NCBI GenBank assembly: GCA_020049115.1
Contig: JAIFLK010000258.1
Coordinates: 1 to 20,220, forward strand
Length of the DNA stretch: 20,220 bases
Source of the DNA: Chloroflexota bacterium
GTDB lineage: Bacteria; Chloroflexota; Anaerolineae; 4572-78; J111
Direction: 5' to 3'
Each line of letters begins with the position of its first letter. The first letter of the stretch is position 1. Below the pieces are notes generated by a model. It ran no database searches, was not told the DNA's origin, and saw only the letters and a list, made by a program, of their open reading frames with translations. Made by a program: the position numbers and the translations under genes. Positions 2,955 through 19,519 of this stretch are shown piece by piece.

Positions 2955-3013
2955 CGTTAAGCGAGTCAGCGATTATAAGGCTCAAAGCCTTATAATCGCT
3001 GACTCGCTTAACG
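2955..3013. repeat. Perfect 27-bp-stem palindrome (cgttaagcgagtcagcgattataaggc-tcaaa-reverse complement), a composite of the GCGAGTCAGC repeat and the TTATAAGG hairpin core
   Basis: Reverse complement of 2955-2981 equals 2987-3013. 'agcgagtcagcg' occurs twice in tandem (2944-2955, 2961-2972) and again, inverted, at 5481-5553. Confidence 0.85.
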
Positions 3014-5480: not shown

Positions 5481-5553
5481 AATAGCGAGTCAGCGAGTCA
5501 GCTATCAGCAAAAAAGCTGACAGACTGAACGCTGACTAGCTGACTCGCTGACA
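5481..5553. repeat. Imperfect inverted repeat built from GCGAGTCAGC units (agcgagtcagcgagtcagctatcagc … gctgactagctgactcgctga)
   Basis: Direct tandem 'gcgagtcagc' on the left arm and its reverse complement on the right. It lies in the divergent intergenic region between the Rpn gene and the histidine phosphatase gene and belongs to the same family as 2944-3013. Confidence 0.7.
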
Positions 5554-5567
5554 ACTGAAGGCTAAAT

Positions 5568-6379: not shown

Positions 6380-6407
6380 GGGGCATCATTTCAATGAGAG
6401 GAAAACT

Positions 6408-6441
6408 AGCCATTATAAGGTTCTGAAACCTTATAATGGCT
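6408..6441. repeat. TTATAAGG-family hairpin (agccaTTATAAGGtt-ctga-aaCCTTATAAtggct) in the 5' UTR of the esterase gene
   Basis: Perfect 15-bp arms. It sits between the extended -10 promoter and the RBS/ATG at 6455. Confidence 0.8.
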
Positions 6442-6454
6442 GAGGCAATCAGCT

Positions 6455-7471: not shown

Positions 7472-7480
7472 AACCCTAAC

Positions 7481-7667
7481 GCCTAGCTGTCCTAGTACAC
7501 CGTTCATTTAATTATTAGTATATCCGAACAGACAGGAATGTCTGTTCCACCGTTGGTAGGTCAGACATTCCTGTCTGACAATGTCTGTTCCACCGTTGGT
7601 AGGTCAGACATTCCTGTCTGACCATATACTAAAAACTAAATGAACAATCCACTAGTACAGCTAGGCA
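7481..7667. mobile_element. MITE-like non-autonomous element: ~43-bp terminal inverted repeats around two tandem ~44-bp units, each carrying small palindromes
   Basis: Left end 'gcctagctgtcctagtacaccgttcatttaattattagtatat' versus the reverse complement of the right end 'gcctagctgtactagtggattgttcatttagtttttagtatat' (~80% identity). The internal unit 'aatgtctgttccaccgttggtaggtcagacattcctgtctgac' occurs twice in tandem and contains the palindromes acagaca…tgtctgt and gtcagaca…tgtctgac. Confidence 0.6.
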
Positions 7668-7678
7668 TGAGTAACTAA

Positions 7679-7716
7679 CCAGCCGTTATAAGGTTCAAAA
7701 CCTTATAACGGCTGGA
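7679..7716. repeat. TTATAAGG-family hairpin (ccagccgTTATAAGGtt-caaa-aaCCTTATAAcggctgg)
   Basis: Perfect 17-bp arms. It lies just right of the MITE-like element and upstream of the DUF4397 gene promoter. Confidence 0.8.
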
Positions 7717-7754
7717 CGCACTACGCGTTAAAATTTCAACGCAAGGGGCTAACC

Positions 7755-7783
7755 TTGTTTTTATGATGTAAAATCGCTACAAT
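7755..7783 (+). promoter_or_regulatory. Candidate sigma70 promoter for the DUF4397 gene (TTGTTT-17-TACAAT)
   Basis: -35-like 7755-7760 and -10-like 7778-7783 with a 17-bp spacer, ~45 bp upstream of the ATG at 7829. Confidence 0.4.
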
Positions 7784-7828
7784 GGTAGATAATACTATTT
7801 CATTATTTTTTGTCGGGGGTTCTTTCTA

Positions 7829-8707
7829 ATGAAGCTAACAAGTCGGTTCGTCCCATTAATATTGGCACTATTGTTCATGGTCGCCACCCAACCCTTCACC
7901 CAAGCACAAGGCGAATTGCCCTCGGTGCGGGTCGTTCACACCTCACCCGATGCGCCACCGTTTGATGTGTTAGCCAACGGCAGGTTGACCTTTCCCCAAG
8001 TGAAATATGGCACGGCTTCGGACTATCGCCCCTTTAATGCGGGCAATTATAACCTATTACGGGTATTGACGACAGGCTTAACCTCCACCGCTGTCTTAAC
8101 GATGGGCCTTGATTTGAGTTTCAATACTCATTATAGTGTCTTAATGTTAGGGCGTGCCACCAATTTGAGCGCGCTCACATTGGTCGATGACCCCATCATG
8201 CCGCCGCTAGGTCAAGCTAAATTACGTTTTGTTCATGCTGCCCCTGATGCCCCTGCCGTAGACATTGCGCTTCGAAATGGGCGAGTGCTGTTTAGTAATG
8301 TGGCTTATAAGTGGATTGGGGCTTATCAAACGGTGGCCGCGGGAACGTATGATTTAGAAATTCGTGTGGCTGGCACAACCCAAATTATTACGACAATTCC
8401 CCAGGTACAATTAAATTCCGCCACCGTCCACACCATGTTAGCCATTGGCCTATTATCAGGCCCGCAGCCAGGTCTTAACGTACTTTTGTTAAATGATGTT
8501 TCTAGTGGCTTAACCCCGCCCATGGAGTCCAAATCTTTAGATTTGACTGCGCCACATTACTATTATCACAACTACACCCCCGCCGACCTGAACCAGTATC
8601 CACCGCCCGTTTATTATCAACCCCAGGAAATACACCCCCTGAATTATTACGAAGTTGCTCCCAATTCCGCCTATCCCCCTCCGTGTCCTACCAGGCGTTG
8701 TTGGTAA
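7829..8707 (+). CDS. Secreted DUF4397 domain protein
   Basis: Signal peptide 'LILALLFMVATQPFTQAQG'. The repeats 'VRVVHTSPDAPPFDVLANG' and 'LRFVHAAPDAPAVDIALRNG' match the DUF4397 signature (VR.VHASPDAP.VDV..DG). The C-terminus is Pro/Tyr-rich. Confidence 0.65.
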   Translation: MKLTSRFVPLILALLFMVATQPFTQAQGELPSVRVVHTSPDAPPFDVLANGRLTFPQVKYGTASDYRPFNAGNYNLLRVLTTGLTSTAVLTMGLDLSFNTHYSVLMLGRATNLSALTLVDDPIMPPLGQAKLRFVHAAPDAPAVDIALRNGRVLFSNVAYKWIGAYQTVAAGTYDLEIRVAGTTQIITTIPQVQLNSATVHTMLAIGLLSGPQPGLNVLLLNDVSSGLTPPMESKSLDLTAPHYYYHNYTPADLNQYPPPVYYQPQEIHPLNYYEVAPNSAYPPPCPTRRCW

Positions 8708-8718
8708 ACTTGTTAAAT

Positions 8719-8751
8719 AGACCTCACAGGTTTTTAAAACCTGTGAGGTCT
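8719..8751. repeat. Hairpin agACCTCACAGGTTT-tta-AAACCTGTGAGGTct, a variant subfamily sharing the AGGTT…AACCT inner core
   Basis: Perfect 15-bp arms, 12 bp after the DUF4397 stop. A sister copy lies at 14671-14703. Confidence 0.75.
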
Positions 8752-8779
8752 GGTAACGTAAGTTCTATAGGAATAAACT

Positions 8780-9487
8780 ATGACCATCCCCATGTGGATG
8801 CAAGCAAATGCCTGGCGCGAGATTTTTGCTCGTGCCTTTGAAAATTGGCCTGTTCAAGTCAACATCTCCCCCGAATGGCTCATTAATCCTGAGACTCATC
8901 GGCGGCTGAAATTAGATTTATTTTACCCTGATGCTCAGATCGCGGTGCGTTTTGAGGGGATACAGCCCGAAAAGCGGAAAGCCCGCCCTAGCTTAGAGGA
9001 AGAAGAACAACAACGCGCCCGCGAGACCGCGAGAGTGGAGGTTTGCCGTGAGCATGGCGTTCATTTATTGTTACTTGATGCCGCCTCAGAGGAAATTGCG
9101 GATGAGTTCCTACAAGTAGACCTCATTTTGAGCCAAGCCCAACGCGCCCTTACCGATGTAACCTGGCAAGAAAATATCAAGACCGCCCGCTTCAAAATCG
9201 CCCAAATTGGGCGACCTTTAACCCAAATTAACTCTCTTAAAACGTATGCCGATTTATGGGAAGACCGCCAATTTCAAATGGCACTCCCTCAAGAAAATCA
9301 AAAACCTGCTGCCGCCCCCACCATTTTTACCGTGGGCATGGATGTCAATCATCAGCTATTTGGCCTCGGTACAATTTTACAAGTTGAGCCAAGTGCCTCC
9401 GATGTTATCCTCACGGTGGATTTTTTGGAAGCGGGTAAAAAGATGTTTGCGGCCAGTTTAGTGGCAGATAAATTGAATACATTGTAG
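8780..9487 (+). CDS. Hypothetical protein: N-terminal DUF559/Vsr-like restriction-endonuclease-fold motif and C-terminal UvrD-C/DUF3553-like (Tudor-like) motif
   Basis: 'LKLDLFYPDAQIAVRFEGIQPEK…RETARVEVCREHGVHLL' resembles the DUF559 pattern (D.y.P.…lAiE.DG…). The C-terminal 'FTVGMDVNHQLFGLGTILQVEPSASDVILTVDFLEAGKKMF' resembles the UvrD C-terminal / DUF3553 pattern (G.rV.H..FG.G.v…V.F…G.K.l). Both are weak motif-level matches. Confidence 0.4.
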   Translation: MTIPMWMQANAWREIFARAFENWPVQVNISPEWLINPETHRRLKLDLFYPDAQIAVRFEGIQPEKRKARPSLEEEEQQRARETARVEVCREHGVHLLLLDAASEEIADEFLQVDLILSQAQRALTDVTWQENIKTARFKIAQIGRPLTQINSLKTYADLWEDRQFQMALPQENQKPAAAPTIFTVGMDVNHQLFGLGTILQVEPSASDVILTVDFLEAGKKMFAASLVADKLNTL

Positions 9488-9508
9488 GGGCTGAAAATCT
9501 TCAGCCCC
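9487..9508 (+). terminator. GC-rich stem-loop (ggggctgaa-aatc-ttcagcccc) immediately after the 8780..9487 stop
   Basis: Perfect 9-bp stem overlapping the stop codon. The downstream U-tract is weak (ctgtttatttggtttt). Confidence 0.4.
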
Positions 9509-9566
9509 CACTGAACTGTTTATTTGGTTTTATACTGCGTACCGAATGAAAATGGCACTTTTGGCG

Positions 9567-9617
9567 TAGGAGTCCGCAATTATTTGCGGGCTGTCCGCAA
9601 AGGATTGCGGACTCCTA
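9567..9617. repeat. Palindrome gtaggagtccgcaat…attgcggactccta with a nested hairpin gcggg-ctgt-ccgc; a partial direct copy lies at 9828-9853 (gtaggagtccacaattccttgtggg)
   Basis: 14-bp perfect inverted arms. The partial copy is ~80% identical over 25 bp and sits 36 bp before the 9889 start codon. Confidence 0.6.
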
Positions 9618-9639
9618 ATCATCATAAAAGTGTAAGTCT

Positions 9640-9745
9640 CAAACGAAATGCAGTATAGTACATGGTCAGACAAGAATGTCCGACCTACCGACGGTAGAAC
9701 AGACATTCTTGTCTGTTCGGATATGCTAGAAATTAAATAAATAGT
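9640..9745. mobile_element. Degenerate single-unit copy of the 7481-7667 MITE-like element, in opposite orientation
   Basis: 'gtcagacaagaatgtccgacctaccgacggtagaacagacattcttgtctgttcggatat' is ~90% identical to the reverse complement of 7524-7583. The flank 'gctagaaattaaataaatag' resembles the reverse complement of the element-1 terminal repeat. Confidence 0.5.
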
Positions 9746-9888
9746 CCCCTACGTATAGATTTAAGTTAACAATTGTTAAGCTACTTGGCAAAATAAGCCG
9801 CTAATTATATAATAGGGGGAAATATGTAGGAGTCCACAATTCCTTGTGGGCAGTTCCCTCATAACCGCGCCTAATGGAGAAGTAAATT

Positions 9889-10980
9889 ATGTTATGGCAA
9901 AGCTACTATACCCCTGAATCGCTTGATGAAGTTTTAGACTTGCTGGCAGAACATCGTGAAAAAGGGCCTCGTTTATTGGCTGGCGGCACGGATTTAATGG
10001 TTGAAATTGAGCGTAGCCAGCAACCCCCCAAAATTGTCATTGATGTAAGTTGTATCCCTGGTTTAGATACTATTTGGCAAGATGAACAAAAAAATATCCA
10101 TTTAGGGCCATTAGCCACCCATAATCAAGTGGTTGGCTCTAAATTATGTGTCCAAAAAGCCTTCCCTCTTGCCCAAGCATGTTGGCAAGTCGGCTCACCC
10201 CAAATTCGTAATCGTGGCACGGTGGCGGGCAATATCGTAACCGCGTCGCCCGCGAATGATACCATTACGCCTCTCGTGGCTTTGGGCGCGACCCTGACCC
10301 TGAAAAGTGTGCGCGGCAGTCGCGCCGTCAAAATTGATGAATTTTTCAAAGGGGTGCGCTCAACGGTGCTAGAACCTGATGAAATGGTGGTTGATATTAG
10401 CTTTCCCGCGCTCAATGGCTACGAAATCGGCACATTTATTAAGGTTGGCTTGCGGCGCGCTCAGGCTATTTCCGTGGTAAACATTGCGGTAGTTTTGGGC
10501 ATGTTCGCCGATACCATTACTCGCGCTCGGATTGCTTTTGGTAGCGTTGCCCCAACGATTATCCGCTCTTTTGATGCGGAACGCTTTTTGAGTGGCAAAG
10601 TGATGACCCAAGAGGTCATTGACCGTGTGGGGGCGATTGCCGAGCAAACCATTTTTCCCATTAGTGATGTGCGCGGTTCCGCCGAATATCGCCGTTATAT
10701 GGTTAAAACCGTGACCCGCCATGCGCTGCAATCTCTCAGCCAAGGCACCGAGTCGGACATCTTTCCGCCCAAACCCGTTATGTTATGGGGCAAAACTAAT
10801 GGCTCATTTAAGCCGCATGAGGGTGGTTCAGTGGTGCATACGGTGGATAAAAATGAGCCGATTAGCACCACTATTAATGGTCAACCGCAGGCGATTAGCG
10901 GGGCAAATGGCAAAACCCTCCTCCGCATGTTACGCGAAAACGCGAACTTGACTGGTACGAAAGAGGGTTCGCGAACTTGA
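9889..10980 (+). pseudogene. Xanthine-dehydrogenase-family FAD-binding subunit (CoxM/XdhB-like). Its 3' end already encodes the start of the [2Fe-2S] domain; it is truncated by a frameshift from a 29-bp tandem duplication
   Basis: FAD_binding_5 motifs are present ('LLAGGTDLMVE', 'GTVAGNIVTASPANDTITPLVALGATL') and the CO-dehydrogenase flavoprotein C-terminal region is present ('RGSAEYRRYMVKTVTRHAL'). The tail '…[33 protein letters not shown]' corresponds to the N-terminus of the 2Fe-2S small subunit and then runs into SRT-stop. Confidence 0.7.
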
Positions 10981-10998
10981 CTGGTACGAAAGAGGGTT
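10941..10998 (+). repeat. Exact 29-bp tandem duplication (cgcgaacttgactggtacgaaagagggtt ×2) inside the fused FAD/[2Fe-2S] gene
   Basis: Positions 10941-10969 are identical to 10970-10998. 29 is not a multiple of 3. Deleting one copy reads through in frame as …[18 protein letters not shown]…. Confidence 0.9.
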
Positions 10999-11406: not shown

Positions 11407-12330
11407 ATGACCACATTAACGCTAGAAATGGCTGAGACCACGAATTTAACTGAAACACCCTCTGACCCATACCTTTACGGTTGGCGACAGGTGACGCGTT
11501 ACGCGCCTGATGGGGAGATGGTGTTTGTGCTTCAGCCCTTAACCTTAGATGATATATTACACCCCCAAGAGGATGACCAACGGATGCACGCGCCTTACCA
11601 TGAACGAATTTGTCGTTATTTAGCCGATGTTTTTGCAACCTATTTAGCCCATGACCCGACTGTTCAGGTCTTTACTGATTTGCGGGTGGCGTGGAATCAT
11701 CCTTACATTGACCCGCATACACCTGATATTTCGGTGGTCTTTGGGGTGAATAATCAGGGGCAGGAATGGACTACTTTTTATGAAGCCAAAGAGGGAACGC
11801 GGCCAACTTTGGTGGTAGAAGTGACCTCACCCTCCACGCGATTGTTAGATTTGGTGGATAAGTTTGACGAGTATGAGCGCGTTGGCTTAGAGTATTACAT
11901 TATTATTGACCGTGTTAAACAGCGCAGTAATGTACAACGGCGAGTGTTAGGGTTTCATTGGACACCACAGGGTTATGAAAAGTTACCTTTGAATGAACAA
12001 GGTTGGTTGTGGTTAGAGCCTGTGCGGGTTTGGGTCACTTGGGAAGACGATGAAATAGTTTGTTATGATGAACAAGGCAAATCTATTCCTAATTATCTCG
12101 CTGTAACCCAGGCCTGGGTTGAAGCGGAGGCTAAAGCTGAGGCGGAGGCTACGGCGCGGGTTGAAGCGGAGGCTAAAGCTGAGGCGGCGGCTACGGCGCG
12201 AGTTGAAGCGGAATCTAAGGCGCATGCAGCGGAGGCCAAAGCTGAATCCGAAGTTAAAGCGCGGGTTGAACTTGAAGCCCGTTTACAACAGCTTGAAGCG
12301 GAGTTGCGCCGTTTACAAGGCAATAGTTAA
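11407..12330 (+). CDS. Uma2-family (DUF820) restriction-endonuclease-like protein with a C-terminal Ala/Glu/Lys-rich coiled-coil repeat extension
   Basis: 'RPTLVVEVTSPSTRLLDLVDKFDEYERVGLEYYIIIDR' matches the Uma2 core (P.l.vEV.SpsT…D…K…Y…Gv.EYwivD). There is a strong RBS aaggaggt 6 nt upstream. The C-terminal repeats are (VEAEAKAEAEATAR)n and end in LQQLEAELRRLQ. Confidence 0.7.
   Translation: MTTLTLEMAETTNLTETPSDPYLYGWRQVTRYAPDGEMVFVLQPLTLDDILHPQEDDQRMHAPYHERICRYLADVFATYLAHDPTVQVFTDLRVAWNHPYIDPHTPDISVVFGVNNQGQEWTTFYEAKEGTRPTLVVEVTSPSTRLLDLVDKFDEYERVGLEYYIIIDRVKQRSNVQRRVLGFHWTPQGYEKLPLNEQGWLWLEPVRVWVTWEDDEIVCYDEQGKSIPNYLAVTQAWVEAEAKAEAEATARVEAEAKAEAAATARVEAESKAHAAEAKAESEVKARVELEARLQQLEAELRRLQGNS
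12118..12290 (+). repeat. Tandem ~54-bp coding repeats (gaagcggaggctaaagctgaggcggaggctacggcgcgggtt…) encoding the Uma2 C-terminal coiled-coil
   Basis: Near-identical units are visible at 12118-12171 and 12166-12219, with degenerate units after. Confidence 0.6.
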
Positions 12331-12336
12331 ATGGTC

Positions 12337-12369
12337 AGCCCTTATAAGGTTTTGAACCTTATAAGGGCT
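12337..12369. repeat. TTATAAGG-family hairpin (agcccTTATAAGGtt-ttg-aaCCTTATAAgggct) between the Uma2 gene and the molybdopterin subunit gene
   Basis: Perfect 15-bp arms. The outer arms are identical to the 1729 copy, while the inner core is the AGGTT/AACCT variant. Confidence 0.8.
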
Positions 12370-12427
12370 TAAAGTTGTCTGTGGCGATTTTTTTGAAAAT
12401 CCTAAAATTATTTATAAGTAGGTCAAC

Positions 12428-14670: not shown

Positions 14671-14703
14671 AGACCTACAAGGTTTTAGAAACCTTGCAGG
14701 TCT
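14671..14703. terminator. Hairpin agACCTACAAGGTTT-tag-AAACCTTGCAGGTct (one A/C mismatch), 8 nt after the stop of the molybdopterin subunit and followed by T-rich sequence; sister of the 8719 hairpin
   Basis: Inverted repeat with 14/15 pairing, followed by taggtttta. Confidence 0.5.
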
Positions 14704-14728
14704 TAGGTTTTAACTGAAAGTTGCTAGT

Positions 14729-18270: not shown

Positions 18271-18306
18271 GAGACGATTAAGACTTACGCAAAAACCAAA
18301 CCTACC

Positions 18307-18385
18307 CCCCTTAATCCCCCCGAATCGGGGGGAGATTTTGCTCCCTCTCCTACATAGGAGAGGGTTGGGGTGAGGTTTTTGCTTA
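18307..18385. promoter_or_regulatory. Two adjacent GC-rich hairpins (tcccccg-aat-cggggga, ccctctcct-acat-aggagaggg) in the 123-bp spacer between the first and second tandem paralogues
   Basis: Perfect 7-bp and 9-bp stems. T-tracts follow both on the plus strand and none on the minus strand, so they are probably not terminators for the minus-strand genes. Confidence 0.35.
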
Positions 18386-18393
18386 AGTCTTGG

Positions 18394-19446
18394 TTATTTA
18401 ACTCCTTGTTGCAGCACCAGTTGCCACGCGGGCAAACTGTTCTGGCAAAGGGGTAGATTATTTAAGGTTATTTCGGGTATAGGTGGGGTAGTTTTCATAT
18501 TAACCACTTCAACCTGATAAGTTTCAGTTAATTTCATTTGAAAATCGGCATAGCCAGGCTCTATTTCGGGCTTGAAACCCGTGAATAAATGATCTTCACC
18601 ATTCGCCCAACTTACTTTAATTTCGATGCCTGGGATACCTTGACCGAGTGTATCATGAATATAAATTCTCAGCAATCCTGTGTTAAGGTTATCGCAGACT
18701 CCTTTAGAATGTTTGACTGCTAAAGGGGCGTTTAGGTTACGGGTTGGAGTGACTTTAGGGAGAAAGGAGTAGGGCGTAGGGAGTAAGGTGGAAGTAATGG
18801 TTGGACGTAAGGTGGAAGGAGTAAGGGATAGGGTGGCAGTGACCGTTGAGGAGTAGGGTAGAGGGATTAGGGTAGAAGAAGTAAGGGCTAAGGTGGCGGT
18901 CATGGTTGGGGTGGCGCGAGTGGGGGTGTTGGTGGGGCGCGGGGTTGGAGTAATAGTCGGTGTGGTGGTAGAGGTTGGCGTGGGAGTATTGGTTGCTGTG
19001 GGTGTGGTTAAGTAAGTTGACATAAGCGGTGATACTTTGCCCAGGGCTTGGGCTAATTCAACCAGTGCAGCGATGTCTCGGATGTCTCGCTCTTGATTTA
19101 TGTATGCTTCCGTAATAATAATGATGGTTTGGTTTATATTGGGGTCAGCGACGGCGGCTAATCGAGTTTGCGCCTGGTCTAGGTGATGATTATGGGCGTA
19201 GGCCAGGGCAATGAGCCGAATATAAATGGCTTTGGCTGATGGGCGCAAATCCGCAGGTGTGACTGGGAGGGGGCGAGGGTCAAGCAGCCAACCGTAGGTG
19301 AGTGATAAAGCCAAACCCACCATAAAACCAAAAAGAAAACCGCCCACCCACCAGGCACGGTCATGGGGATTTCGGCGCGGAGTGGGCTTAGACGGTTGAA
19401 CAACTTTGGACAAAGTTTGGTTTTTTAGGGTAGAAAGTAGGGGCAA
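18394..19446 (-). CDS. Membrane-anchored paralogue: short cytoplasmic N-terminus, one TM helix, extracytoplasmic helical region, Thr/Pro-rich linker and the shared Cys-pair C-terminal β-domain
   Basis: TM 'WWVGGFLFGFMVGLALSLTYGWLL'. Linker 'TTPTATNTPTPTSTTTPTITPTPRPTNTPTRATPT…'. C-terminal 'GVCDNLNTGLLRIYIHDTLGQGIPGIEIKVSW…GYADFQMKLTETYQVEV…NNLPLCQNS' aligns with the C-termini of the 14968..18270 and 19520.. genes. Confidence 0.65.
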   Translation of the reverse strand: MPLLSTLKNQTLSKVVQPSKPTPRRNPHDRAWWVGGFLFGFMVGLALSLTYGWLLDPRPLPVTPADLRPSAKAIYIRLIALAYAHNHHLDQAQTRLAAVADPNINQTIIIITEAYINQERDIRDIAALVELAQALGKVSPLMSTYLTTPTATNTPTPTSTTTPTITPTPRPTNTPTRATPTMTATLALTSSTLIPLPYSSTVTATLSLTPSTLRPTITSTLLPTPYSFLPKVTPTRNLNAPLAVKHSKGVCDNLNTGLLRIYIHDTLGQGIPGIEIKVSWANGEDHLFTGFKPEIEPGYADFQMKLTETYQVEVVNMKTTPPIPEITLNNLPLCQNSLPAWQLVLQQGVK

Positions 19447-19519
19447 TGCCTTGTGCTTGCCCCCATTGTGGGTAGGGACAAGCCCTACCCCTACTATCTA
19501 CTTTCTACCTTCTACCATT

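Follow-up and report, generated by a model that had tools for sequence, protein, structure and literature searches.

Bacterial MITEs that derive from IS630/Tc1-mariner elements and show TA duplication are exemplified by Correia/NEMIS of Neisseria and by RUP of S. pneumoniae. In Nostoc, small dispersed hairpin repeats were reportedly found by Elhai et al. 2008 nested in minitransposons and in short tandem repeats. [quoted passage not shown] Known RAYTs (REP-associated tyrosine transposases) cleave at dinucleotides selected by the GTAG guide, the cleavage sites being CT or CA, and little is understood so far of how REPs spread (PMC8266576). In A. variabilis and H. neapolitanus, REP dimers have been described within long palindromes (PMC3733652).

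The window analysed here (the whole stretch of 20,220 nucleotides from contig JAIFLK010000258.1 of a Chloroflexota bacterium) carries two inverted copies of an element that belongs to these known kinds, MITE and REP, as a new member; in genomic terms it is plain "junk" whose architecture is instructive. Copy 1 is one member of a ~115-bp non-autonomous, TA-inserting MITE family that is probably moved in trans by a DDE transposase of IS630/Tc1-mariner type. The element is small and has no ORF, and its arms of 30-31 nt extend to its ends, as is typical of a MITE. It fits the family consensus GTGGATTGTTCAyTTAATT..TATATCC-[REP1 doublet]-CATrTACyAAAAACTAAATGAACArTCCAC and consists of the following parts.

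7495..7652, plus strand: copy 1, A-type MITE of 158 bp (115 bp minus the internal duplication), composed of left arm, REP1 doublet and right arm
7495..7525, plus strand: left arm (terminal inverted repeat), 31 nt
7623..7652, plus strand: right arm (terminal inverted repeat), 30 nt
7493..7494, no strand: left TA of the duplicated target dinucleotide, assigned by family-wide TA flanks and paralogous empty sites
7653..7654, no strand: right TA of the duplicated target dinucleotide, assigned in the same way
7481..7492, no strand: left flank gcctagctgtcc, complementary to 7655-7666, a local target palindrome outside the element
7655..7666, no strand: right flank gtacagctaggc, partner of 7481-7492, outside the element
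7526..7551, minus strand: inverted copy of REP1, the minus strand reading GGTGG-AA-CAGACATTCCTGTCTG-TT-C, with the GT[AG]G head directly 5' of the stem
7555..7579, plus strand: forward copy of REP1, GGTAG-GT-CAGACATTCCTGTCTG-AC
7580..7622, plus strand: exact repeat of the 43-bp unit 7537-7579, forming an internal tandem duplication (100% identity)

The original prediction, made from the letters of the sequence, gave the element terminal inverted repeats of ~43 bp. The inverted arms do exist, and with the flank included those of the flagged repeat span 7476-7523 and 7624-7671 (48 nt, 81% complementary), but the outer 12 bp on each side (7481-7492 and 7655-7666) are local flank. The outer gcctagctgt repeat was considered as the true end of the element and rejected: it is missing from the other family copies, whose flanks are unrelated. 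The tandem repeat also stands, as two exact copies at 7537-7622, with a unit of 43 bp and not of 44 bp. This duplication is a recent private variant. It is missing in six metagenome contigs otherwise near-identical to copy 1, and comparable internal partial duplications are seen in 16 of the 68 family readings; slippage between repeated TGTCTG half-sites is its likely cause. Elsewhere in the window, a duplication with a 29-bp unit lies at 10941-10998. The right-hand REP hairpin is rated terminator-like only through this duplication. Copy 1 folds as one long hairpin (z = -9.3), and its single-unit form, folded as single-stranded DNA, reaches -30.8 kcal/mol against a shuffle mean of -8.2 (z = -9.1). 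The 22-mer core has 2 matches in the window with 0.00 expected. The element starts 22 nt past the stop codon of an esterase gene.

The two palindromes noticed originally, acagaca-ggaa-tgtctgt and gtcagaca-ttcc-tgtctgac, are present and are in fact the two halves of a REP doublet (7526-7551 and 7555-7579), with the GTAG heads directed inward and GTT between them. The core consists of two GTAG/GTGG-headed REP hairpins (CAGACATTCyTGTCTG) paired as a doublet, the kind of substrate on which RAYT (HUH tyrosine) transposases act. The head is found in the window as GGTAG followed by GTCAGACA... and, on the other strand, as GGTGG followed by AACAGACA...; over 184 occurrences of REP1 its composition is G94/T89/A76+G19/G93 percent. 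A REP stem was expected to be fully paired and 7-20 bp long with a loop of 2-5 nt, and REP1 forms a perfect helix of 8-9 bp containing CAGACA/TGTCTG with a 4-nt loop (TTCC/TTCT). The two variable stem positions beside the core show covariation with their pairing partners in 97-98% of the 184 occurrences. REP1 is dispersed over at least 98 genome loci, the locus of the window not being among those listed, and over 94 metagenome stretches. Inverted doublets are seen among these occurrences, and the 16-nt core is almost the same in at least 10 phylum-level groups. A full-text search of the literature with this core in both orientations returned no paper. In seven of seven loci, all from other phyla, REP1 adjoins a RAYT gene on both sides, and the proteins encoded pass the cut-offs of Pfam Y1_Tnp and NCBIfam REP_Tyr_transpos (NF047646). 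Neither the window nor ~780 kb of source-like contigs yielded a RAYT of this REP1 clade; the only RAYT in those ~780 kb (L155) is flanked by a different REP.

The MITE-like character of the element was borne out by a metagenome scan that gave 94 stretches, a sample chosen by the core pattern and hence biased. The copy-number test set with the original prediction came out positive: the A-type family occupies 43 distinct orientation-collapsed insertion sites elsewhere, with unrelated flanks and a modal length of 115 bp, as a multi-copy MITE does, and it is abundant in an uncultured Chloroflexota lineage, probably of the class Anaerolineae. The subfamily of copy 1 is also present in the contigs JFJP010112xx-118xx and Ga0316608-12. 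Six other sites are ~99-100% identical to copy 1 (117-nt query including 2 extra flank bases), which together with the nested insertions described below indicates recent mobility. TA is found at both ends in 63 of 68 strand readings. A preference for CTAG is evident, as 72% of readings have C at -3 and 65% have G at +3, and C-TA...TA-G occurs in 27 of 63 sites as compared with ~6% expected. For A, B and D types, removal of the element together with one TA gives an intact paralogous sequence; in L161 a B-type element becomes whole again once the A-type element and one TA are deleted, and over the junction it then shows 100% identity to L145. Such nested insertions are built-in empty-site controls. 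Insertion of the A-type family takes place at TA, with a preference for CTAG, and leaves the TA duplicated. Both features agree with a MITE derived from IS630/Tc1-mariner. TA duplication with CTAG target preference is reported to be characteristic of the IS630 family (Tenzen and Ohtsubo 1991; ISfinder).

The same kind of core is carried by four arm families (A, B, D and E), whose duplication signatures are TA, TA, 3 bp and 8 bp. The REP doublet is the sole feature common to all four; one arm type is found with different REP doublets, and one doublet type in different arms. The duplications of the sister families with the same core, a variable one of 3 bp (TTA, TAA or TAT) or perfect ones of 8 bp, are hallmarks of staggered-cut DDE transposition and thus argue for DDE-type mobilisation. 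Arms without a REP core were not seen in the core-biased sample. Since every one of the four arm families contains REP doublets and coreless arms were unseen, the core rather than the arms could be what the mobilising enzyme recognises. A transposase gene with matching ends was not found in ~780 kb of related contigs, and the sampled loci, a small and biased set, held neither arm pairs more than 260 bp apart nor repeated transposase-like ORFs. The arm consensus gave no match to viral contigs, nor did a distant BLAST search with the 187-bp element to plasmids. HIP1 (GCGATCGC) occurs 0 times in the window, which is thus without this common cyanobacterial signature.

Copy 2 had been predicted as a single inverted unit at 9666-9725 with ~90% identity. 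An inverted second copy does exist, but it is a full, degenerate member of the family with ~87% identity, spanning 9511-9749. Its parts and the neighbouring REP2 sequences are given below.

9511..9749, minus strand: copy 2, A-type MITE, older, with degenerate ends, split by a nested B-type element; REP1 doublet at 9664-9718
9533..9655, plus strand: B-type MITE inserted into the arm of copy 2, with arms TACTGCGTACCGAATGAAAATGGCACTTTT and AAAAGTGTAAGTCTCAAACGAAATGCAGTA around a REP2 doublet
9566..9618, no strand: doublet of REP2 whose heads point outward, made of GTAGGAGTCCGCAAT-TATT-TGCGGGCT and an inverted partner; arms of 23 nt, 91% complementary
9826..9852, plus strand: single REP2 copy GTAGGAGTCCACAATTCCTTGTGGGCA with a compensatory G-to-A and C-to-T stem change

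Copy 2 without 9532-9655 aligns colinearly with copy 1 (106 nt, 87%); the inverted match of 7503-7584 to 9660-9741 covers 82 nt at 88%, and the arm at 9719-9749 was recovered by an arm search. The nested B-type MITE, which folds at -34.3 kcal/mol (z = -8.3), is surrounded by a duplicated TA (9531-9532 and 9656-9657), and its deletion together with one TA restores a junction that matches uninterrupted A-type arms at 92-94%. Copy 2 is an older, independent insertion that later received a B-type MITE with a different REP doublet. This doublet type is also found elsewhere within B-type and E-type arms. The gtaggagtccgcaat palindrome reported originally for the spacer is confirmed at 9566-9580 and 9604-9618, with a further single copy at 9826-9840; shuffles expect 0.03 matches. 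A conserved promoter, TTGGCA-17-TATAAT, lies at 9785-9813, downstream of copy 2.

The two inverted copies do bracket the DUF4397 gene and a gene for a protein of 235 aa, as had been stated, and this arrangement gave rise to the idea that they are the ends of a composite transposon which mobilised or rearranged the intervening 2-kb segment as a unit. Several observations make this extremely improbable. The order of the 235-aa gene and the following xanthine-dehydrogenase genes is kept in three relatives, so that copy 2 lies inside a conserved gene pair. In the closest relative (L204, 87% protein identity) the orthologous spacer is 125 bp long, retains the promoter and is free of elements, lacking both copy 2 and the single REP2 at 9826-9852; the comparison of the locus with this relative therefore speaks, together with the conserved gene order that spans copy 2, against a mobile 2-kb unit. 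The copies are only ~87% alike, one of them degenerate and with a nested insertion, each has TA flanks of its own, and family members reside at many unrelated intergenic sites. Among the 120 listed homologs of the 235-aa protein, those for which an organism is named, a minority, all come from Anaerolineae or Chloroflexota. The copies thus do not behave as ends that move the genes between them. The second bracketed gene had been called endonuclease-like; no endonuclease domain was found in it, the only match being to the PcrA/UvrD tudor domain.

A stronger competitor of the DDE-driven MITE, although still an unlikely one, is a REPIN/BIME-like element in which the whole hairpin is moved as single-stranded DNA by a RAYT (Y1 HUH transposase). 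The enzyme would recognise the REP core and cut at the TA that lies at the foot of the long hairpin, without any true target duplication; the TA on each side could be left by single-strand insertion 3' of TA of an element that itself ends in TA. Such a mechanism would suit the bona fide GTAG/GTGG-headed doublet, the RAYT flanked by REP1 in 7/7 loci, the doublet as the one trait that the A, B, D and E arms have in common and the folding of the element into a single long hairpin (z ~ -9). It also has precedents in the dinucleotide cleavage guided by GTAG (PMC8266576) and in the REP dimers reported inside long palindromes (PMC3733652). However, the 3-bp variable and 8-bp perfect duplications of the sister families are not produced by Y1 transposition, and for this reason mobilisation by a RAYT alone was downgraded. 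Moreover, the arms are symmetric through their final base, the target is the palindromic CTAG, known RAYT sites are CT or CA and not TA (PMC8266576), and the ~780 kb of contigs yielded no REP1-type RAYT, L155 being flanked by a different REP. The elements might alternatively act now mainly as host structural signals maintained by selection and not by continuing transposition, for instance as hairpins at transcript ends, as stabilisers of mRNA or as binding sites of proteins, roles of the kind proposed for REPs. Their position immediately past the 3' ends of genes and ahead of the promoter that follows (copy 1 lies 22 nt after the esterase stop, and TTGGCA-17-TATAAT follows copy 2) and the high stability of the hairpins agree with this idea, as does the terminator-like right-hand REP hairpin, although the latter owes this rating only to the duplication. 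The recent mobility seen in the six ~99-100% identical sites and in the nested insertions, as well as the orthologous spacer of L204, which keeps the promoter without the elements, render it improbable. A search of the whole window for known structured RNAs with Rfam at gathering thresholds gave no match, and a known structured RNA is rejected on this ground.

In the preferred explanation a DDE transposase of IS630/Tc1-mariner type would act on the A-type MITE in trans, its gene residing at another genomic location. There was probably a single entry of the REP doublet into the apex of the arm palindrome, after which doublet and arms would have been amplified as one. A more general scheme may be suggested tentatively, in which REP doublets are interchangeable cores of at least 4 MITE arm families, homing to the single-stranded hairpin apex and then being spread by DDE transposition, so that two enzymes act as a relay. 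If this is true, the relay could explain the persistence of one REP core (CAGACATTCyTGTCTG), shared with at least 10 other phylum-level groups, in a Chloroflexota lineage whose sampled contigs (~780 kb) did not yield its RAYT. The locus illustrates cleanly how two classes of small mobile DNA, REP doublets (HUH/RAYT) and MITE arms with DDE-type duplications, are combined, and should the modularity hold genome-wide, it offers a way to test target choice by REP doublets. The repeats of the window are selfish insertions in intergenic spacers, neither a regulatory RNA nor a gene-mobilising transposon, and they account for the frequent contig breaks in this organism.

The element resembles Correia/NEMIS and RUP in its size of ~100-160 bp, the lack of coding capacity, terminal inverted repeats that reach the ends, a high number of copies and an intergenic position, as well as in TA duplication with CTAG preference, nested insertions and hairpin folding. 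It differs from them in having as its interior not a remnant of a parent IS but a REP doublet, on which a different class of transposase acts; neither a parent IS nor its transposase was found here in ~780 kb of related contigs. With the small dispersed repeats of Nostoc it shares very small hairpin repeats inside MITE-like elements, whereas the phylum and the sequences are different, and a link to a RAYT clade and matched target duplications are demonstrated here. As compared with REP/BIME/REPIN systems, i.e. GTAG-tagged palindromic repeats with RAYT (TnpA-REP) (PMC3733652; PMC3116915; PMC6006769), the head, the stem of 8-9 bp and the 4-nt loop are the same, and the embedding is similar to that of the REP dimers in the long palindromes of A. 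variabilis and H. neapolitanus (PMC3733652). The likeness extends to inverted doublets able to fold into one hairpin, to the multi-copy, extragenic occurrence and to the REPtron, with REP1 on both sides of RAYT in all seven loci; in contrast to these systems, the contigs sampled from the source lineage (~780 kb) yielded no cognate RAYT. The doublet here lies nearly always within ~30-bp arms with target-site duplications, while REPINs are not known to make such duplications. Finally, REP families are usually specific to a species or genus, whereas the 16-nt core of the present one is spread over at least 10 phylum-level groups.

The arms of copy 1, the element under study, are:
7476–7523 and 7624–7671, inverted arms, 48 nt, 81% complementary

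The tandem duplication predicted inside these arms is exact (7537–7622), its unit being 43 bp long and not 44 bp, and the small palindromes described for the repeat are present in the window sequence. The inverted second copy exists as well (88% identity over 82 nt, 7503–7584 versus 9660–9741), its originally given extent of 9666–9725 being too short. The window contains two occurrences of the 22-mer core and three of the gtaggagtccgcaat motif, with 0.00 and 0.03 expected from shuffles, respectively. As ssDNA the single-unit form adopts a single long hairpin structure of −30.8 kcal/mol (shuffle mean −8.2; z = −9.1), and the element with the duplication reaches −40.4 kcal/mol (z = −9.3). Comparison of the window with Rfam gave zero family matches.

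The metagenome scan for the inward-facing doublet pattern returned 94 stretches, mostly on JFJP01 and Ga0316608-12 contigs; most of these doublet copies carry the same arms as copy 1 (A-type arms). The family consensus is TA / GTGGATTGTTCAyTTAATTwyTAGTATATCC - doublet - CATrTACyAAAAACTAAATGAACArTCCAC / TA, and the flanks of the copies are mutually unrelated. With the two orientations collapsed the scan gives 43 distinct insertion sites, a copy number that supports a mobile element, and the MITE reading of the original prediction is right. Six of the 43 sites are about 99–100% identical to copy 1 and the remaining ones 84–92%; the modal length of A-type elements is 115 bp. TA borders the element at either end in 63 of 68 strand readings, with C before the left TA in 72% and G after the right TA in 65% of readings (C-TA...TA-G in 27 of 63 sites). 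Since the flanks differ between family copies and the borders are TA, the element is bounded by 7495–7652. The arms stand as terminal repeats; the outer gcctagctgt stretch taken for the element end (gcctagctgtcc / gtacagctaggc) is local flank, by chance palindromic around CTAG. Short tandem octamer repeats (AGTCAGCG, AGCGAGTC, GCTGACTA) are located at 2931–2972 and 5484–5563 of the window. Similar gctgac repeats with CTAG border several MITE insertions (e.g. in loci L133 and L138) and may be preferred MITE targets.

The families insert into each other, which provides paralogous empty sites, and the target duplication is real. Removal of the A-type element and one TA from locus L161 leaves an intact B-type element whose sequence over the junction matches the L145 copy at 100%. 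Removal of 9532–9655 from the window gives a 92–94% match to uninterrupted A-type arms across the junction (dozens of loci) and makes copy 2 colinear with copy 1 (87% over 106 nt); removal of D-type elements has a similar outcome. The other arm families built around this doublet differ in their duplications: B-type arms have a TA duplication, E-type arms perfect 8-bp duplications and D-type arms a 3-bp duplication, matched within a copy and variable between copies (TTA, TAA or TAT).

The TA duplication with CTAG preference, the symmetry of the arms to the last base and the unambiguous duplications of the sister families make it rather probable that A-type elements are mobilised by a DDE-type enzyme of the IS630/Tc1-mariner kind. 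A cognate transposase with matching ends, which the original prediction proposed to seek, was not found in about 780 kb of related contigs, which counts against this reading. Mobilisation by RAYT (REP-associated tyrosine transposase) would agree with the REP core common to all arm families, but it is unlikely given the variable matched duplications of the sister families. These are a signature of staggered cuts (DDE), while single-strand Y1 transposition (IS200/IS605) makes none (PMC8266576).

Six metagenome contigs represent the same locus as the window. Over the 2.5 kb compared, their sole differences from it are the lack of the 43-bp unit, an indel of 3 bp at 9618 (TGG, extra in 6/6 contigs just after the doublet of REP2, a different REP) and three SNPs. 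Of the 68 family readings, 16 contain partial internal duplications, which are 21 to 95 bp long and vary in their junctions. The 43-bp duplication in the window probably arose by slippage between the four CAGACA/TGTCTG half-sites, or it may be an assembly artefact.

Homologs of the 235-aa protein encoded between the two copies are all from Anaerolineae or Chloroflexota where an organism is named (a minority of the 120 listed), and in three relatives the gene is directly followed by xanthine-dehydrogenase genes. The comparison with an element-free locus suggested earlier could be made: the closest relative (87% identity at the protein level) has a spacer of 125 bp, the window one of 401 bp. The shorter spacer retains both the terminator-like hairpin and the promoter region (TTGGCA-17-TATAAT), whereas copy 2, its nested B-type element and the single REP2 are all missing from it. 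Since the gene order is kept in relatives and the closest one has a short element-free spacer, copy 2 is an insertion between two genes of a conserved pair. The same order and spacer refute the proposal that the 2-kb gene segment was mobilised as a unit, and a composite transposon of copies 1 and 2 is ruled out by the position of copy 2 inside this pair. Downstream, an exact 29-bp tandem duplication (10941–10998) breaks up the gene for the FAD/Fe-S subunit of xanthine dehydrogenase, leaving two ORFs (363 and 130 aa); the gene is intact (483 aa) in the six metagenome contigs, and the duplication may represent either a recent frameshift or an artefact of assembly. A Uma2 gene (putative restriction endonuclease fold, 11407–12330) lies between two xanthine-dehydrogenase subunit genes that are adjacent in relatives L205 and L206. 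It contains a 42-bp tandem repeat (2.3 copies, 96%, 12116–12212), and its product in contig L100 is one repeat unit shorter (293 versus 307 aa).

The core of the MITE is a REP doublet. Its central palindromes, on the appropriate strands, are GGTGG-AA-CAGACATTCCTGTCTG-TT and GGTAG-GT-CAGACATTCCTGTCTG-AC, each with an 8–9 bp stem, a 4-nt loop and, immediately 5' of the stem, a GT[AG]G head. This architecture is that of the published REP definition (PMC6006769), and the inward-facing heads correspond to the "TT dimer" of Di Nocera et al. (PMC3733652). A scan with GAACAGACANGAATGTCTGTTC (one genome per species) gave at least 98 loci. Matches listed include Caldilinea, Ignavibacteria, Zixibacteria, Latescibacterota, Planctomycetota, Pyrinomonadaceae, Spirochaetia, Binatia, Bacteroidetes, Dadabacteria and others, many of them at contig ends. 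Over 184 occurrences in the loci listed, the head of this repeat (REP1) has G in 94%, T in 89%, A in 76% or G in 19%, and G in 93%; the two variable positions beside the core are complementary to their partners in 97–98% (AA/TT, GT/AC, GA/TC, CA/TG).

ORF clustering across the GAACAGACANGAATGTCTGTTC loci listed revealed a Y1_Tnp protein family. REP1 is present on both sides of the Y1_Tnp gene in L054, and in L056 a REP1 doublet and a third copy directly follow the stop codon. The L056 protein scores 92.3 bits (cut-off 80) with the NCBIfam equivalog "REP-associated tyrosine transposase". Its homologs are 50–81% identical, the named ones being from Zixibacteria, Ignavibacteriae, KSB1, Tepidisphaeraceae and Pirellulales. 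GGT[AG]G-nn-CAGACATTCyTGTCTG-nn lies at most 150 bp from the gene on both sides in 5/5 homolog loci examined. REP1 is therefore the cognate repeat of one RAYT clade (7/7 examined loci). REP families are usually species- or genus-specific. The 16-nt core CAGACATTCyTGTCTG is near-invariant over at least 10 phylum-level groups, while the RAYTs paired with it share just 50–81% identity, which suggests strong co-constraint or horizontal spread.

No RAYT of the REP1 clade was found in about 780 kb of related contigs; the sole RAYT there (L155, 99.1 bits, NCBIfam REP_Tyr_transpos) is bordered by a different REP. GGAGTCCAAATCTTTAGATTTG is repeated on both sides of the L155 RAYT gene (L155 3900–5100), which by eye adjoins a cas1-like ORF. 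The coding sequence of the DUF4397 gene in the window also contains GGAGTCCAAATCTTTAGATTTG (8524–8545), translated there as ESKSLDL; this looks like an intragenic REP insertion.

Palindromes of the type GCCnTTATAAGGyT...ARCCTTATAAnGGC or AGACCTnnnAGGTTTT...AAACCTnnnAGGTCT in the window are:
1726–1760, palindrome
2975–3003, palindrome
6410–6443, palindrome
7680–7715, palindrome
8719–8751, palindrome
12336–12370, palindrome
14671–14704, palindrome

They follow almost every gene of the window, have no GTAG head and may be terminators or another repeat family. Sites 6405–6446, 8715–8752, 12336–12374 and 14671–14704 recur in metagenome loci, and similar palindromes are present in the Caldilinea MAG. 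Intergenic regions 18277–18391 and 19437–19494 (26–34 recurrences in metagenome loci) contain palindromes of the type GTAGGGG...CCCCTAC, suggestive of a further REP family with GTAG heads.

The core enclosed by E-type arms is a GGAGTCCAAAGCC... doublet, a doublet of REP2 or of REP1, or another palindrome. B-type arms carry REP2 doublets in the source-like metagenome (window included) and REP1 doublets in the Caldilinea MAG. Judged from these combinations, arms and cores appear to be modular; core-less arms were not seen in this sample, itself selected by the core pattern. The feature is real and mobile, and its wider interest is limited to the way in which REP cores and MITE arms combine as modules. 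Its kinds, MITE and REP, are known ones and the family is previously undescribed; REP dimers within long palindromes were noted earlier in three species by Di Nocera et al. (PMC3733652).
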